A DNA stretch of 64,000 bases. It comes from a virus. Its lineage: Duplodnaviria; Caudoviricetes. The position numbers were made by a program, and so were the translations under genes. Of the stretch, positions 3,001 to 58,989 are shown one piece after another. Each line of letters begins with the position of its first letter. Position 1 is the first letter of the stretch. The stretch lies in the IMG/VR virus record IMGVR_UViG_3300031555_004294, positions 1 through 64,000 of that record, one strand, 5' to 3'. Under the pieces are notes generated by a model. The model worked only from the letters and a program-made list of their open reading frames with translations. It was not told where the DNA came from and did not search any database.

Positions 3001-3870
3001 TAGGTCATCACCATTTTCAGCAGTGGGTACCTTATCCATAACATCAATAAAGTGCATGGCACCATTTACACCAGTGATTAACTGTTGTAGTTCATCTATA
3101 TTTTCAACAATATCTTCTCCACCAACGAATAACTTCTTTGCAACAACAGTAGTAATTTCTAAACCTACTTCAGGATTTCCACTACTATTGTTTACACTTG
3201 TTTCGCCTACTTTCATGACGATATTACCATTGTTATCAGTAACTAGTAGTTCAGTATCACTATCACTAGCTGAGATATTACTAAGGGTAGTCTTTTCATC
3301 ATCTGTAACATGAAGAGTATCTGTATTTTGTACGTGTTCAACAAAAGCAACATCTAAAACATCAATAGTAGTATCTAGTTCATCAATTCTAGTAACAATA
3401 CTTTCACCGTGAACCTTTACATCAGTAGTGTTGACACCATTCTCATCAACTCTGAAAACAATGTTACCAGCTTCATCAGTAATTTCTAGTTTTTTATCAT
3501 CACCATCAGATCTAATAGTACCTATGGTAGTTTTTTCATCATTTGTAAGGTGAATATCTGTATTTTCAGTATGAGTAGATAAGTTAGTTGCTACAGTATC
3601 TACTTGAGTAATAGTAGCGTGGTCTGTAGGAAGATTAGTTAAATCATTGTAGTTACCAGAAAAATCTGATTTAGCGTTCCACTTATTTTTATCAGCTTCT
3701 GTAACGTGAATATCTGTATCATCTATATGCTCATCGACAGTAGTATTTAAAACATCTAAATCGTCATTACTAGCTGGTGTATAACCTAGTGCTGTAGTGA
3801 CTTTTTCTTTTGTTATTGATTGTCCTGAAAGTTTCTTTAATTTACCTTCAAGTTGAATATTTACACTCAT
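1..3870 (-). CDS. Large repeat-rich tail-fibre-like protein, runs off the window start (absent from ORF track)
   Basis: ATG at 3870 with AAAGGAGG upstream; frame begins MSVNIQLEGKLKKLSGQSIT; ~515-nt internal repeats near 270, 785 and 1305; shares AMHF..GDVI.VG.EE.VF.NG.F.EFGD and ATGLYALI modules with 7021..9939. Continuity of the frame was not checked codon by codon. Confidence 0.75.
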   Translation of the reverse strand, partial: MSVNIQLEGKLKKLSGQSITKEKVTTALGYTPASNDDLDVLNTTVDEHIDDTDIHVTEADKNKWNAKSDFSGNYNDLTNLPTDHATITQVDTVATNLSTHTENTDIHLTNDEKTTIGTIRSDGDDKKLEITDEAGNIVFRVDENGVNTTDVKVHGESIVTRIDELDTTIDVLDVAFVEHVQNTDTLHVTDDEKTTLSNISASDSDTELLVTDNNGNIVMKVGETSVNNSSGNPEVGLEITTVVAKKLFVGGEDIVENIDELQQLITGVNGAMHFIDVMDKVPTAENGDDLSVYDNGDVIAVGEEEWVFVNGKFVEFGDITAEGQRITTLENKVNHATTGLDSKASKDELNEVATNLSTHTENGNIHLTNDEKTTIGNISATDSDTELLVTDNNGNVVLKVGETSVVDENNNPEVGLETTNVVAQKVFIGSKDVQTEIDAINTKIGTVPDDYDDVVSMVSDLTDNLDNKIGDVAEGTNVVTMISDLSTEIGDPKTSTKDATGLYALINEKIDEVITDLTTQHNTDLDNLREEIVSESDEWIVADGSGNIIAKVGETSVNGSNGNPEVGLETTTVVAKKVFIDDTNVADTIDELRTEIDTHTEESDNRTDKLHITAAERTAWNAKSDFSGSYNDLTNLPTNHATTSYVDEAITSLTTKHNTDLDNLREEIVSESDEWIVADGSGNIVARVDENGLNTTVVNATTDIQLNGESIIDMIDELDTEIKTRKITATASDDDVVVLSGTGGENSVSYTASHAKSGVTAGTYTNVTVNAYGHVTAGSNPTILQDTTSNVSPSNSNNDTFTAIDSVTRDSNGHVTKVNTKTVNLSTFRDEITEEIVSESTSFTIVDGSGNIGTTIDANGLDTTTVTADTISLNGVDIGNSDTGMMLKSTYDTNHDGIVDKAAKLATARTISLTGDASGSTTFDGSGNVSINVTVANDSHTHSQYLTEHPDVNTTTGNIDTGNTVSPSNSNNDTFTAFDSLTRDNYGHVTKVNTKTVSLSTFRDEITEEIVSGSTSFTIVDGSGNIGTTIDAEGLETTTVTADTVVIDGLTIGPAGTDLGLVKTGGDVTITNGVIAVNDDSHNHSNYAKEVKITGSGNAITAISQSGNTITATKGATFLTKHPDITMGADDNDDIETPSSSNNDRFTAVDSVTRDGNGHVTAVNTKTVDLSTFRDEITEEIVSGSTSFTIVDGSGNIGTTIDSSGLDTTTVTANTIALDGQDLQEKLEDLEVSWNQIQKSGTKIATIKIGDAAATDVYAPSPDGVGGGGDTVNVTQHLTSGTKIATIDVN

Positions 3871-26745: not shown

Positions 26746-26912
26746 CTAAAACGAAATTTTTTCTAAACAAAAAAGTAAACAAATAAATAGTCTACTAAAT
26801 TATGTATTTGCAGTGGTAATAGTAAAACTAACTATGACACTACAAATTATAGAAAAGATTTTAATATACTACATCATATTAAATCAAACAAAAATTAAAT
26901 TTTTTCTAAATG

Positions 26913-26979
26913 AAAGGAGGAAATCATACACTGGATTTGATCTCTTTCGATCAAATTACGTATGATATTTAAACTTATG
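26913..26979 (+). promoter_or_regulatory. Hairpin-bridged ribosome-binding site of the major capsid gene
   Basis: AAAGGAGG (26913-20), stem-loop 26921-26969, ATG 26977 seven nt after the stem. Confidence 0.65.
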
Positions 26980-29036: not shown

Positions 29037-30032
29037 ATGAGTAATAAAAATGCAAAGGGTTATGTTCCTCCTATGACAGATAAAGAATTTAGAGATTTAG
29101 TTTATAGTTTAGTGGGAGATGAGTATACGGTTTTAGGAAAATATGTGAAAACTGATGTAAAAATTAAAATGAGGCATAACACATGTGGACATCAATATGA
29201 AGTTACACCAAATAAATTTCAACAAGGAAGAAGATGTCCAAAATGTTATGGAAATAAAGAAAGAACTTTAGAAAGTTTTAGAGAAGAAATCAAAAACCTA
29301 CCAGATGGAGATGAATACGAATTACTAAGTGTTGAGTGTAAAGATAACAAAACACCAATGGAATTTTTCCATAAAATATGTGGTGAAAAATTTAAAAAAC
29401 CAACTGTTGGATTCTTAACAAATCCAAAGAATAAAGCAAATACTAGATGTCCTATATGTTCTAGACAATACCAAGTAATTAATCATCCAAATAGGTTATC
29501 TTATGAAGATGTTAAGAAAATTGTTGAAACTAAACATTCTGGTGAATATAAACTTCTTTCAGACAATTATAAAAACACTAAGAGTTTGATAAAAATCTTA
29601 CATATTGGTGGTTGTGGTAGAGACTTCGATACCGATATAGACCATTTCAAAAGAAAAGACTATAAATGTCCAAGATGTAATGAATCTGTAGGTGAGCAAA
29701 GAGTAAGAAAAGTCTTAGAAAGTAGAAATATAGAATTTATACAGCAATACAGATTTAAAGACTGTAGAGATAAAAATCCTTTACCATTTGATTTTTATAT
29801 TCCAGCTTATGATCTTTGTATAGAGTTTGATGGTATACAACATTACGAAAAAGCTAATTTTGGTTCTTATGCAGCTGACTTAGATACAATTCAATTACAT
29901 GATGAAATCAAAACTAACTATTGTTTAGATAACAATATTGGTCTCATACGAATTAGTTACAAAGACTTTGATAATTTAGAAAAAGTTTTAAAGAAAGATC
30001 TAAATGAATATCTTAAGGAGTTAGATATATGA
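29037..30032 (+). CDS. Free-standing homing endonuclease, CxxC repeats plus EDxHD/Vsr-like domain
   Basis: CPRCNES.GE...FKDCRD..PLPFDFYI...IEFDG.QH...HD.IK; clearly paralogous to 23235..24242. Confidence 0.8.
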   Translation: MSNKNAKGYVPPMTDKEFRDLVYSLVGDEYTVLGKYVKTDVKIKMRHNTCGHQYEVTPNKFQQGRRCPKCYGNKERTLESFREEIKNLPDGDEYELLSVECKDNKTPMEFFHKICGEKFKKPTVGFLTNPKNKANTRCPICSRQYQVINHPNRLSYEDVKKIVETKHSGEYKLLSDNYKNTKSLIKILHIGGCGRDFDTDIDHFKRKDYKCPRCNESVGEQRVRKVLESRNIEFIQQYRFKDCRDKNPLPFDFYIPAYDLCIEFDGIQHYEKANFGSYAADLDTIQLHDEIKTNYCLDNNIGLIRISYKDFDNLEKVLKKDLNEYLKELDI

Positions 30033-47687: not shown

Positions 47688-48479
47688 ATGACTTATACCT
47701 TTTTAAAACAAGAAGAAGATAAAGTTGTATTTGTAGGCAATAGACTAGATATTTACCTCCCTAAATCTTATTTTGATGAAGATATGCTTGCTGAAGAACT
47801 TGGAACTCAGATCAAGACTATAGCTTGCTTTGTAATGCGTTATTATAAAGACCCTGACAGTACTAAGTATGAAACTTATCAGCTATCTTTACCAGAAGAT
47901 ATTACTTTTTCATTTTCTGAGTTCAAAGATAATGTTAAAGAAGTATTAGTTGAGAGGAATTTTAATGAAGATGGAATAGATGAAGAACTTGATAGTGATG
48001 ATGAAGTAGAAGATAGTTATAAGATTTTTACTCTTTATCAAAATGACATTTTCATCAATAATCTTAACCATGCAAAAAGCTATAAAAACACAGAAAAGTT
48101 ATTAAAGTTACATCAGAAGGGAAAACTCCCAAAAATGATTAAGTATAGTGACTTTATTAAACTTTATCTAGAAAACATGGAAACAAATAGTACTGATTTA
48201 CAGGTTCCTTCATTAATTCTAGAAATGACTATTTCTGAGTTAGCAAGGTATAAGCAAAATCCAGAAATTCCATTTAGACAAGTTATAGGAAAATCTAATT
48301 CAAAGATTTCAGAATTAGATTACAAGCAGGCATCTATTAAGGAATTAGCTATGCTTTCCTCCTCATTTACAGCTATGACTAGTGAAAACATTAACAAAGC
48401 GATTGTATATTCTGTTTCTAAATCCAGAGATGGCGGAAAAGAAGCAGAAACTCCAATCGAACCAACCATAAAGTACTAA
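47688..48479 (+). CDS. Possible RNA polymerase beta' C-terminal subunit
   Basis: LILEMTISELAR...ASIKELAMLSSSFTAMTSENINKAI loosely parallels beta' HIEVIVRQM...GITKASL..SF.SAASFQET. Confidence 0.4.
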   Translation: MTYTFLKQEEDKVVFVGNRLDIYLPKSYFDEDMLAEELGTQIKTIACFVMRYYKDPDSTKYETYQLSLPEDITFSFSEFKDNVKEVLVERNFNEDGIDEELDSDDEVEDSYKIFTLYQNDIFINNLNHAKSYKNTEKLLKLHQKGKLPKMIKYSDFIKLYLENMETNSTDLQVPSLILEMTISELARYKQNPEIPFRQVIGKSNSKISELDYKQASIKELAMLSSSFTAMTSENINKAIVYSVSKSRDGGKEAETPIEPTIKY

Positions 48480-48660
48480 TAACATTTAAACTTCGATTAT
48501 TCTTTTTTTAGAATAATCGAAGTTTTTATCATTTTTTCAGAACAAGATATTAGATTTATTCTCCTAGTTTTATGAATTCTATGAAAAGTTCTCATTCGTT
48601 TCAACAAATATATAAAACTTTATAAACTGCTATAACTTTATAAAATTTATGACAAAAAAA

Positions 48661-48733
48661 GAAAGGAGGTTTCTGCTGTATAATATAAAATAAACAACTA
48701 CATTATATTTTTAACAGCAGGAAATTTTATATG
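48661..48733 (+). promoter_or_regulatory. Hairpin-bridged ribosome-binding site of the tail sheath gene
   Basis: GAAAGGAGG, stem 48670-79/48714-23, ATG seven nt after the stem; AACA-N6-TA at 48541 and 48603. Confidence 0.65.
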
Positions 48734-51658
48734 GCAATTAGTTATGTACATCCTTCTGTAAGCAGTACTATTACTGACAATTCTACTACGTATATTACTG
48801 CTTCAGGAACTACTAAATTATTCGCTGTTTTTACTTCTGAAAAGGGTATTGACAATGAAATCCAAACTATAACTTCTGCTTCTGAGTTTATTTTTAACTA
48901 TGGCGAACCTAACATGAAGCTATATGGTCAGGCTGGTTACAATATTGTTAACTGGTTGAATGCTGGCGGTGCTGTATATTGCTTACGTGTTCTTCCTGAA
49001 GATGCTGGCTATGCAAATGCTATTGTTAACATTCAGACTAAGAAAACCCAGAAAGAAGTATTAGATGTTAATGGTGAGCTTGTAGTTGTAGATAATGTCG
49101 AGTTACGTCCTTGCATTACTTATACTAACCTTAACAATACGTCTAAAACGGAAATTGAGTCTGAATTAAGACGTGTCACTGCTGAAACTATTGATGGTTA
49201 TACAAACAATATGCTGTTTGCAGTAATTCCAAATGGTAGAGGTAAGGGATATAATAACTTAGGTTTCAGATTTAGCTTAACTGAAGCTTATGATTCTACT
49301 TACGAATTCCGTCTTTATAATTTTGAAGTAACACAAACTTCTAGTACTGGTAGTGTATCTGTTATTCAAGGTCCTTTCCTTGTTTCTTTAGATCCTGATG
49401 CTATGTCTAACAGTGGTAGTTCTTTCTTTATCACTGACGTAATCGACAACTACTGTGATTACTTCACAGTTATCTTCAATGAAGACAACTATGAGAAATT
49501 AGCTAAGCTTATCAATCCTGAAGTTCATCCTAATAAGATTGACTTTTTCAGTGGTTTAAGTCGTCAGATTAATGGTGAGTACGAAACTTATTATGATGAG
49601 CGTACCAACAAGGAAGAAGATATTCATATGTCTGTTATCAGATATACTGATGATGGCAAAGCTACCAATGAGCGTAATATCATCGATGCTTCTGATGCTA
49701 TTGAGAATTCTATTGCATTGATCGACAATGCTTATCGTAATGAACAGTATGAACGTTATAATGAATCTTTTGAGCGTTCTAAAGAAGTTTTAAGTATTAT
49801 CAAGAAATTTGAAGATGCATCTACTCGTAAAGTTGCATATAATAACATTGAACTAGATACAATTAAAGACGAAAATGGTAAAGCATATACGCTTGATGCT
49901 GGTGTTGCAGCTTTTGAAGCTGATAATTCTGTAGCAGAAGCATATGATGTCTTTGAAGTTGCTAAGGGCGAATTAACTAATGATGTTTCTGAAGCTACTT
50001 ACAATATTGCTAATGCAGAAGTTTATGCTCTATCCGTTTGCATTAATGCTTTAGTCGATCAGCTTTATGAATTATTTGACTATGCAAGAATTAGTCAAGG
50101 TGTAGATGATTCTCATGCATCTACTGTTGCTACTCTTTTAACAGATCTTCAAACTGTTGAAGGTAAACTTAAGTCCATGACTGTTGCTGAACTTAATTGC
50201 AATAAGCATAAGAATACTGTTTCTGAGCTTTCTGAAACCTTTAACAATCTGAATGTTAATTCAATTAACTCTGAAAAAGAAGAATTTATTTATGAGGTCA
50301 TTGGAAAAGTTGAAAGTATCTTAGCAACAATCAAGAATATTTCTGATGCGGTTGAGGGTTCTTCTAATACCTTTGCAGATAGCCATTTAGAAGAAGTAGA
50401 AACTGCTCTAAATGTAATTAAGACTGATTATGATACTCTCACTGATGATTATACAACTGCTGTTGATTATGAGATTTCATTAGAATCTGCATGGAGAACC
50501 ATTAGAAATCTGTTAAAGGTTGAGTCTCTCTATTTTACAATTAATCTTGCACTTTTAGAGAATAAATCTGTTGCTTACAATGAGCTTAAAGAGCCATTAA
50601 ATAGCTTAAAGGCAAGAGTTGTTTCCTTCATTAATACTGTCAAGTCTGAAATCGGTGGTTTCGATTATGCGGCTGCTAAAACTTCTATCGTTTCCATCCA
50701 GAAGGATACAACCGATAAGAAGCAGGAAACCTACTACACAGTTTCTCAGAACTTTGATAACTATGTATCTCTACTTTACGGTACCGATGGTTCTATAGAA
50801 GATGTTTCTTATAGAGATCATGCAGTTGAGAAACTAATCATTGAAGGCTATAAGGGTATGATTGATGACTCCTTAACTGATAAGGAACAGTGGCCCATCG
50901 ACATGGTTCTTGACGCTAACTACTCTGCTAATATTAAGAGTGCAATTGCTGTTCTTTGTACTGAACTTCGTACTGACTTTATGGGTATTCTTGATACTGA
51001 GTTACAAGCAACTCCTGGTGATGCTATCAACTATAGAAAGAGTTCCATCAACTTCAACAACTATCGTCTTGCTATCTTTACTCAGGACTTTGTTGTTTCC
51101 GATAGTGAATATACTGGTAATGAGATTAGAATAACTCCTACTTATTTCCTTGCGTCCAAGATTCCTTCTAATGATAACACTAATGGTATCCATTGGAATT
51201 TTGTTGGTCCTCGTCGTGGTACTGTTACTGGCTTTAAGTCTGTTTCCTTCTTACCTAATGTTGAGTGGAGAGAAAGACTATATAACGCACAGATTAACTA
51301 TGTACAACAGGATCAGATTTCTACTAGATTCAACTCTCAGTTAACCTCTCAGCACAGTGTTTCTGCACTGTCTAATATTAGCTGTGTACGTACTCTTCTC
51401 AGAATTCAGCGTGATGTTGAAGATTTAATGAAGAACTACCAGTTTGAATTCAATGATTCTGTAACTATTACCAACGCACAGACCGATCTTAGTGCTTATC
51501 TGAATAAATGGATTGCTAACCGTGCTTGTGATTCTATCTCTGGTACTGTTTATGCATCCGACTATGATAGACAACAGAAGCTTCTTCGTGTTAAGGTTGA
51601 ACTTACCTTCAATTCTATCATCGAACGTATCGCTATTGACCTGGTTGTCAATGCATAA
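48731..51658 (+). CDS. Tail sheath protein with a large helical insertion
   Basis: HP.V...I.D.S, EFIFNYGEP, YCLRV; C-terminal R.D...ILD, GPRRG, LY..QINY, S.LS.I...R.L, FEFND. Confidence 0.9.
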   Translation: MAISYVHPSVSSTITDNSTTYITASGTTKLFAVFTSEKGIDNEIQTITSASEFIFNYGEPNMKLYGQAGYNIVNWLNAGGAVYCLRVLPEDAGYANAIVNIQTKKTQKEVLDVNGELVVVDNVELRPCITYTNLNNTSKTEIESELRRVTAETIDGYTNNMLFAVIPNGRGKGYNNLGFRFSLTEAYDSTYEFRLYNFEVTQTSSTGSVSVIQGPFLVSLDPDAMSNSGSSFFITDVIDNYCDYFTVIFNEDNYEKLAKLINPEVHPNKIDFFSGLSRQINGEYETYYDERTNKEEDIHMSVIRYTDDGKATNERNIIDASDAIENSIALIDNAYRNEQYERYNESFERSKEVLSIIKKFEDASTRKVAYNNIELDTIKDENGKAYTLDAGVAAFEADNSVAEAYDVFEVAKGELTNDVSEATYNIANAEVYALSVCINALVDQLYELFDYARISQGVDDSHASTVATLLTDLQTVEGKLKSMTVAELNCNKHKNTVSELSETFNNLNVNSINSEKEEFIYEVIGKVESILATIKNISDAVEGSSNTFADSHLEEVETALNVIKTDYDTLTDDYTTAVDYEISLESAWRTIRNLLKVESLYFTINLALLENKSVAYNELKEPLNSLKARVVSFINTVKSEIGGFDYAAAKTSIVSIQKDTTDKKQETYYTVSQNFDNYVSLLYGTDGSIEDVSYRDHAVEKLIIEGYKGMIDDSLTDKEQWPIDMVLDANYSANIKSAIAVLCTELRTDFMGILDTELQATPGDAINYRKSSINFNNYRLAIFTQDFVVSDSEYTGNEIRITPTYFLASKIPSNDNTNGIHWNFVGPRRGTVTGFKSVSFLPNVEWRERLYNAQINYVQQDQISTRFNSQLTSQHSVSALSNISCVRTLLRIQRDVEDLMKNYQFEFNDSVTITNAQTDLSAYLNKWIANRACDSISGTVYASDYDRQQKLLRVKVELTFNSIIERIAIDLVVNA

Positions 51659-58164: not shown

Positions 58165-58290
58165 TTGACAGTTTTAACTATATATTTTAAACTTGAAGAA
58201 ATTAAATGTTTTCTTCAAGTTTAAAATTCTTTATTTGACATCTTTAGTAACTTGAATTAATTGACAGGAGGACTTATGAAGTAGCTAATT

Positions 58291-58989
58291 ATGATTAACA
58301 GATTGACAGAATTTATAGCACAAACAAAAGGTATATCAACTAATCGATGGATATACTTCGATCAGGGTCTAAGTTATACTTATGACGGTGATCAATTAGT
58401 ACAAGCAATAACAAATTTTAAAGAAGACAAAAAAGGTGGAGAATTTTTTAGTGATAAAACTTTTAAGATTCAAGTAGACGAATTTAATGATTTTCTAAAG
58501 GAATACAAGAAGTCAATAATCGGAACCAATATTTTAGAAGATAACACTATTGAAATCAAAACAAGTATACCAAATGTCAAGTTAGAATTTAAATGGACAA
58601 ATGCAGATACTCTAAAGTTAGAACAGATTAAAACTTTCTTTAATAGCTTAGTAGCGTCTGATAGTACAAAAATTTTCGATCATAGTTTTTCAAAAGAAGA
58701 AATCTCAAAATTCACATCAGAAAAAAGTAACAGAATTTATACTTTCACAGATAATAGTATCTCCTTCGATAGTATCAGTACAAAGGACATGATGTTGATG
58801 ATTTCAATTTTTCCAAAGTATCTTGGAAAAATACTATCATCTACTAAAGAACTAAACCTAAAAATTTATTCTACTGAGAAAGATTTTATCTATCTAGTTC
58901 ACTTTAATGTCAAAAACATGAATATAGTGACGGATTACTATGGTTTATGTTCAGATCTCATTCCAATAGAGGAAGGAGGTTTGGACTGA
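58291..58989 (+). CDS. Hypothetical protein
   Basis: 232-aa ORF between polB and sbcC. Confidence 0.6.
   Translation: MINRLTEFIAQTKGISTNRWIYFDQGLSYTYDGDQLVQAITNFKEDKKGGEFFSDKTFKIQVDEFNDFLKEYKKSIIGTNILEDNTIEIKTSIPNVKLEFKWTNADTLKLEQIKTFFNSLVASDSTKIFDHSFSKEEISKFTSEKSNRIYTFTDNSISFDSISTKDMMLMISIFPKYLGKILSSTKELNLKIYSTEKDFIYLVHFNVKNMNIVTDYYGLCSDLIPIEEGGLD

Follow-up and report, generated by a model that had tools for sequence, protein, structure and literature searches.

The window analysed here is a stretch of 64,000 nucleotides from an uncultivated giant (jumbo) phage of the gut, AR9/PBS1-like and with about 32% G+C, whose sheath protein is recorded on a 299-kb contig as well and whose host is probably a Firmicute. 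A tail sheath gene lies on the plus strand at positions 48731 to 51658 and encodes 975 amino acids (phrog_19666, E value 6e-239). Its start codon, ATG 48731, can be taken as fixed because the N terminus MAISYVHPS is common to the relatives. The upstream gene, which encodes a virion protein (ORF 47688-48479), is followed on the same strand by an intrinsic terminator at 48488-48525, called by a terminator scan as a 16-pair stem with a T tail; it is kept in relatives with compensatory changes (alignment A3). The sheath gene is therefore a transcription unit of its own. From this terminator to the Shine-Dalgarno sequence (SD) of the sheath gene, the DNA is A/T-rich.

The sole strong SD of the sheath gene is AGAAAGGAGGT (plus strand, 48660-48670), with the core GAAAGGAGG at 48661-48669. 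It offers 11 nt of complementarity to a 16S tail of the Bacillus type, and with that anti-SD the predicted duplex has 11 bp and -17.5 kcal/mol. The core is directly adjoined by the 5' arm of an outer stem, TTTCTGCTGT (48670-48679, with covariation), which pairs with the 3' arm ACAGCAGGAA (48714-48723) over 10 pairs, one of them a G-U (T48672-G48721). The interior of the hairpin (48680-48713) comprises an inner A-U helix, AATATAA (48682-88) with TTATATT (48703-09), and an apical loop. A single-stranded spacer, ATTTTAT (48724-48730), leads from the stem to the start codon and is 7 nt long, relatives having 7 to 10 nt. On the linear molecule, 61 nt (48670-48730) lie between the final G of the SD and the ATG, of which the hairpin takes up 54, leaving 0 + 7 unpaired nucleotides once folded. 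A preliminary description of the locus had claimed an SD abutting a 10-bp stem, this inner helix, the linear distance of 61 nt, the 7 nt from stem to AUG, and a weak AGGA near the AUG hidden in the stem; all of these proved correct, the AGGA being found at 48719-22 within the 3' arm.

In ordinary genes of this genome, taken as those whose SD matches over 6 nt or more, the SD stands 3 to 14 nt from the AUG (median 9). At 61 nt, the sheath SD lies beyond the linear working distance, and the predicted hairpin would restore a working spacing. For the 91-nt leader region, the folding energy is -15.9 kcal/mol (z = -3.4), a value matched by none of 200 shuffles; for the 61-nt spacer alone (-14.5 kcal/mol), none of 500 dinucleotide shuffles was as stable. 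A single helix leaving 4 to 14 unpaired nucleotides was obtained in 24 of 500 shuffles of this spacer (5%). Extending the test to other leaders, we found that 15 out of 15 shuffle-tested leaders were bridged, versus 3 to 30% of their shuffles. An alternative register exists for the sheath leader, in which GAGG of the SD (48666-48669) pairs with a U run (48725-48728) by G-U and A-U pairs, so that only 2 nt are left free. It is the minimum-energy fold of the 91-nt region, at -15.9 kcal/mol versus -15.4 kcal/mol for the centroid in the simple register, and it is not conserved, the relative L005 being devoid of the U run.

The SD, the stem and the spacing are kept in relatives whose sheath is 53 to 68% identical over the whole protein (L004/L034, L005-7/L035-37, L008/L038, L012 and L013, taken from IMG/VR and from assemblies), while the 5' half of the loop has diverged. 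Two further members of the clade to which the window belongs, clade A, have stems that are partly or wholly different (L042 and L066). The hairpin is kept in eight sheath leaders of clade A, and in a covariance-model alignment of these eight, 98% of the cells pair, with compensatory double changes at four of the eight core pairs; both figures are to be read as coming from an alignment fitted to the structure model. Slid controls gave zero compensatory pairs, and the covariation score was reached by none of 500 shuffles. As judged from these alignments, the hairpin layout is real and under selection. P0007-P0019, as well as several relatives at 45 to 55%, lie outside the leader comparison.

One part of the loop deserves a separate mention. 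In its 3' half, TATATTT (48704-48710) is conserved and stands 4 to 6 nt before the 3' arm, the 5' half being variable. This run was seen in the window and in L004, L005, L008, L012, L013, L042 and L066; TATAT is invariant in the eight clade-A leaders, with differences at the two final T in L038 and L042. Such conservation exceeds what a mere pairing partner needs.

Sheath leaders of a second clade carry unrelated hairpins at the corresponding place. That of L044 has a 9-bp stem with 12 nt to the AUG, that of L067 is G+C-rich (-24.3 kcal/mol, 0 + 7 nt), and that of L053 is weak or marginal, with 16 nt by the minimum-energy fold and 9 nt with a bulged extension. By minimum-energy folding, the more distant sheath leaders leave 7 to 12 unpaired nucleotides from SD to AUG, L053 excepted. 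Taking all leaders of this layout together, for capsid as well as sheath genes (hereafter split leaders), the linear distance from SD to AUG ranges from 23 to 91 nt and the distance in the minimum-energy fold from 7 to 14 nt, except for the marginal L053 sheath leader (16 nt). Capsid leaders of some relatives have spacings as long as 10 to 14 nt, again by minimum-energy fold, and these, like the L053 sheath leader, speak against a bridged site. The hairpin begins 0 to 4 nt past the SD and stops 7 to 12 nt before the AUG. A metagenome scan for further relatives yielded two loci only, one of which is conventional.

In AR9, late promoters have the consensus AACA-N6-TA/G, the last base being the transcription start site (TSS), and the TSS of the sheath gene was mapped to a motif of this type, giving a 34-nt UTR (PMC5312081). 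We found two late-promoter-like motifs on the plus strand ahead of the sheath gene in the window. The first, P1 (AACAAGATATTA, 48541-48552), matches the AR9 consensus and predicts a TSS at A48552; the second, P2 (AACAAATATATA, 48603-48614), predicts a TSS at A48614 and a 117-nt 5'UTR. The P1 block (roughly 48534-48556) is identical or nearly so in five relatives while its flanks have diverged, and the 14-nt P2 block (48603-48616) shows no change among five relatives, in contrast to the diverged stretch that separates P1 from P2. The bare AACA-N6-TA motif shows no enrichment in the window (77 found, 88 expected) and was rejected as promoter evidence, so that the case for P1 and P2 is one of conservation and position only. 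These conserved motifs, with their predicted start sites, argue for an SD and hairpin that lie within the 5'UTR.

An AACA-N6-TA motif is also present on the minus strand at 48938-48949, within the sheath ORF and directed back over the start codon and the leader. In the AR9 study, antisense RNAs are reported to reach their highest abundance at the sheath gene and the gene next upstream (PMC5312081). The motif falls in a conserved coding stretch and could be due to chance.

The hairpin could in principle be an element acting on the DNA or on transcription, such as a promoter in the loop, an attenuator or terminator, or a processing site for RNase III. The 5' arm indeed holds an extended -10-like sequence, TGTATAAT, the loop holds AACAACTACATT, and a stem-loop of this length resembles the substrates of RNase III. 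However, neither TGTATAAT nor AACAACTACATT is conserved in relatives, and a cut by RNase III in the stem would sever the sole SD from its AUG. Besides, AR9-type phages do not depend on the sigma-70 RNA polymerase of the host (PMC5312081). We consider any such role extremely improbable.

The individual candidates were also rejected on grounds of their own. The AACA motif of the loop ends in TT and not in TA/G, and a regional sigma-70 scan was no richer in sites than shuffles. No U tract is conserved after the stem (L005), and the terminator scan does not call the hairpin. A leader peptide translated from the distal SD would require a start codon, and there is no ATG, GTG or TTG 4 to 13 nt past it; CTG codons are present in the 5' arm, at a spacing that is inconsistent among relatives. 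Rfam has no match for the sheath hairpin.

The preliminary description had also considered the case in which the proximal AGGA drives full translation by itself, the distal SD being dispensable. The AGGA is absent in L004, L005, L012 and L013, where CAGAAAA(T/A) precedes the AUG, and since most relatives are without it, the distal SD cannot be dispensable there. Because the AGGA is not conserved, the distal SD is the only SD: beside the start codon, the window has just the AGGA enclosed in the stem, and the four relatives have none. The 9-mer GAAAGGAGG occurs nine times in the 157 kb of the genome that were scanned; two copies are those of the capsid and sheath leaders, and the seven others precede ordinary starts, so that it is a working SD elsewhere in the same genome.

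The leader of L042 presents a particular situation, as it contains at 392-400, besides its distal SD and a hairpin with a perfect stem of 10 bp, a second SD-like sequence, GAAAGGA, which stands 2 nt before the sheath ATG and is too close for an ordinary SD.

A strong SD-like sequence well upstream of a start codon may have another function. The STAB-SD of Bacillus is a 5'UTR sequence of this kind that binds 16S rRNA and stabilises the cry3A mRNA without directing initiation (PMC4113751, and, as cited there for Bacillus thuringiensis, Agaisse and Lereclus 1996 and Mathy et al. 2007). The sheath leader resembles it in having AGAAAGGAGGT, complementary to the 16S 3' end, far from the start of a gene whose expression is very high and whose setting is Gram-positive, where a bound 30S subunit would likewise shield the mRNA. 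The cry3A element is presumably the very 9-mer that forms the core of the sheath SD, GAAAGGAGG. If the distal SD were mainly a stabiliser of this type, a parked 30S subunit together with the hairpin would block 5'-to-3' decay of the RNase J1 type, and initiation at the sheath AUG would be independent of GAAAGGAGG. The unusual length and strength of the SD (9 to 11 nt, -17.5 kcal/mol predicted) would fit, as would the fact that SDs measure 8 to 11 nt in all split leaders versus 5 to 8 nt in conventional relatives, and that capsid and sheath genes need abundant late mRNA. A stabiliser, however, needs no fixed geometry, whereas the hairpin sits 0 to 4 nt past the SD and 7 to 12 nt before the AUG in many unrelated versions. 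A STAB-SD is joined to its AUG by no hairpin, whereas folding of the sheath leader would bring the AUG to an initiation distance of 7 nt; most relatives lack any other SD, and ribosomes must still be recruited to their AUG. Moreover, the SD lies at least 47 nt from the predicted 5' end of the transcript. We therefore regard a mainly stabilising role as unlikely, while noting that stabilisation and initiation could coexist in the same distal SD.

The same layout is found on the capsid gene of the window, at 26912-26979 on the plus strand, with GAAAGGAGG at 26912-20 and the start codon at ATG 26977, which is fixed by the conserved N terminus MSIEYR. The capsid hairpin is two-tiered (outer stem 26923-29/26960-66, inner stem 26934-42/26949-57), leaves 7 to 10 nt to the ATG, and is unrelated in sequence to that of the sheath, as the preliminary description had noticed. 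Split capsid leaders were found in the window, L014/L017, L015, L016, L020 and L065; stems differ among relatives while the place stays the same, and the looped-out hairpin reaches about 77 nt. Directly downstream of the major capsid gene, the window has an HNH/homing-endonuclease-like ORF (29037-30032; phrog_559, E value 2e-73).

Strict and relaxed scans of all ORF starts in 157 kb of the approximately 299-kb genome returned the capsid and sheath genes as the only credible cases, so the earlier remark that the design is confined to these two genes holds for the part scanned. The remaining matches were internal start codons, the SD of which serves an ordinary start just upstream. Elsewhere in the window, at 58262-58293, AGGAGG is followed by a two-codon mini-ORF (ATG-AAG-TAG) and then by ATG 58291 of a 232-aa ORF, which is 16 nt past the SD in aligned spacing; this could be a start-stop/re-initiation arrangement, or simply a long spacer.

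The tail tube of contractile tails is presumably made in amounts comparable to the sheath. In the clade of the window, the tube gene has an ordinary SD. In the distant relative L053, downstream of the sheath stop (3337), a tube gene is preceded at about 3415-3465 by GAAAGGAGA, a 10-bp hairpin (-9.4 kcal/mol) and 11 nt before the ATG, and the phage of L053 thus has distal-SD-plus-hairpin leaders on capsid, sheath and tube.

The restriction of the layout to particular genes bears on the question of whether it brings any benefit. A palindromic insertion between SD and AUG might survive simply because it folds away, leaving a split binding site that is a neutral passenger. Indeed, AR9, S6 and many relatives do well without the layout, and the loop drifts freely in length as in sequence, the linear spacings ranging from 23 to 91 nt. 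On the other hand, within the 157 kb it is restricted to the virion genes of highest abundance, and the hairpin is not a repeated element of the genome: a mobile palindrome was tried as a candidate, and no second intergenic copy of the arm pair was found in the 157 kb. Compensatory changes also maintain the hairpin in relatives whose protein identity falls to about 50%, and new hairpins take its place where it would otherwise be lost. A neutral origin without benefit thus appears very improbable to us.

Among 15 phage records, seven have the layout on both capsid and sheath, and eight, including AR9 and Staphylococcus phage S6, have it on neither. Ordinary SDs are used by AR9, BpSp, S6, LPJP1 and several uncultivated relatives, the sheath gene of AR9 included; the hairpin device is therefore not needed. 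In the sheath tree, split leaders occupy two clades with conventional ones between them, and a single split clade is not firmly rejected (AU test borderline, p-AU 0.057). A test for correlated evolution of capsid and sheath states was not significant, as the records provide no more than two independent contrasts (p = 0.5 in a sign test).

This distribution may call to mind a regulatory switch, in which a factor of the phage or the host (a protein, an RNA, a helicase or temperature) opens or stabilises the hairpin and so sets the timing or the amount of capsid and sheath. The states of the two genes agree in all 15 records, the tube gene is included in one lineage, TATATTT is conserved in the 3' half of the clade-A loop, and the alternative fold masks part of the SD. 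Against this, stems and loops have no sequence in common between capsid and sheath or across lineages, hence no common recognition element; the co-occurrence amounts to those two contrasts, and the AU test leaves room for the split clades to have arisen once. No candidate factor is at hand, and the alternative fold is not conserved, as L005 has no U run. A switch of this kind is, in our opinion, rather improbable. The preliminary description had proposed a shared translational control for virion stoichiometry or timing. Its first half stands, inasmuch as the layout is shared with the capsid gene through an unrelated stem, is present on both genes or on neither in seven and eight records, and reaches the tube in one relative. 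Its second half does not: nothing points to regulation, the stems are without common sequence, the tube gene is conventional in the clade of the window, and the co-occurrence has the weight of two contrasts.

To our knowledge, split ribosome binding sites (RBSs) have been proven only for two genes of phage T4, and they are usually regarded as curiosities. A targeted search, limited to the library of papers used, found no report of them in jumbo phages. In T4, folding brings the SD of gene 38 from 22 to 5 nt, and that of gene 25 from 27 to 11 nt, from the start codon; mutations provide the proof, those that open the stem reducing translation (PMC3014915; PMC7297116; the original work of Gold 1988, Nivinskas et al. 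1999, and Malys and Nivinskas 2009 is used as reviewed there). The sheath leader is similar in that the SD is too distant linearly and a stable hairpin restores the spacing (from 61 to 7 nt), and in that late virion genes of a large myovirus are concerned. As with gene 25, the layout is limited to a subclade, and relatives farther away do not have it. Several differences are nevertheless to be noted. Roughly 16 to 17 nt are looped out in T4, in contrast to 54 nt here, or three to five times more if capsid leaders are included. The SD is much longer here (9 to 11 nt), and the phage, which is AR9-like, has a Firmicute as its probable host. The T4 proteins are minor ones of the baseplate and of fibre assembly, whereas here they are the two, and in one lineage the three, most abundant virion proteins. 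Unlike in T4, unrelated stems recur at one site. Finally, T4 genes 38 and 25 are backed by mutations, whereas the split site described here is predicted from sequence.

Another system to be compared is E. coli thrS, whose RBS is split by an operator hairpin (Sacerdot et al. 1998, as cited in PMC7297116). According to that citation, the ribosome there tolerates a sizeable stem-loop inside its binding site; the thrS hairpin, however, is an operator bound by the repressor and stands between the SD and an enhancer region upstream of it, whereas the sheath hairpin lies between SD and AUG.

Given the anatomy of the leader, its predicted stability, its conservation with compensatory changes and the fact that no other SD is conserved, we consider it likely that the sheath leader is a non-contiguous, hairpin-bridged RBS of the T4 gene 38/25 kind. 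Transcription from a late promoter, with a predicted start at A48552 and/or A48614, would produce a monocistronic mRNA with a leader of 117 to 179 nt. The very strong SD AGAAAGGAGGT would be the docking point of a 30S subunit; the following 54 nt would fold, and the hairpin would protrude from the ribosome. This would leave 7 unpaired nucleotides and the width of a single helix end between SD and AUG, the normal working distance in this phage, and initiation would proceed as at an ordinary strong site. In this sequence of events, we infer the TSS, the formation of the hairpin on the ribosome, and its being a help rather than a hindrance to translation. The scheme assumes that the ribosome tolerates a looped-out hairpin of 54 nt, and of up to about 77 nt in other leaders, far above the proven T4 cases. 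The bridged site is probably constitutive, and not a proven 'control'; the strongly bound initiating ribosome would probably also protect the 5' region of the mRNA.

A more speculative extension, to which we give little credence, is a translation programme proper to certain lineages and acting late in infection, in which a factor encoded by the phage or supplied by the host, or a change of the ribosome in the course of infection, favours or licenses initiation on those mRNAs whose SD and AUG are joined by a hairpin. Were it true, capsid, sheath and, in some lineages, tube would be switched on together, and this would explain a joint gain in separate clades with stems of no common sequence.

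The hairpin-bridged RBS itself, if confirmed, would mean that ribosomes can cope with large structured inserts separating the SD from the AUG, and that gene finders and RBS calculators expecting an SD within about 15 nt of the start mis-score such genes. The natural variants, from 23 to 91 nt linear and from 7 to 14 nt folded bar one marginal case, make up a ready series for the study of initiation geometry. Uncultivated AR9-like jumbo phages carry the layout on their most abundant virion genes, where it appears to have been rebuilt repeatedly with unrelated hairpins; if confirmed, it would be, beyond a tolerated accident, a design that can be preferred for very high expression.
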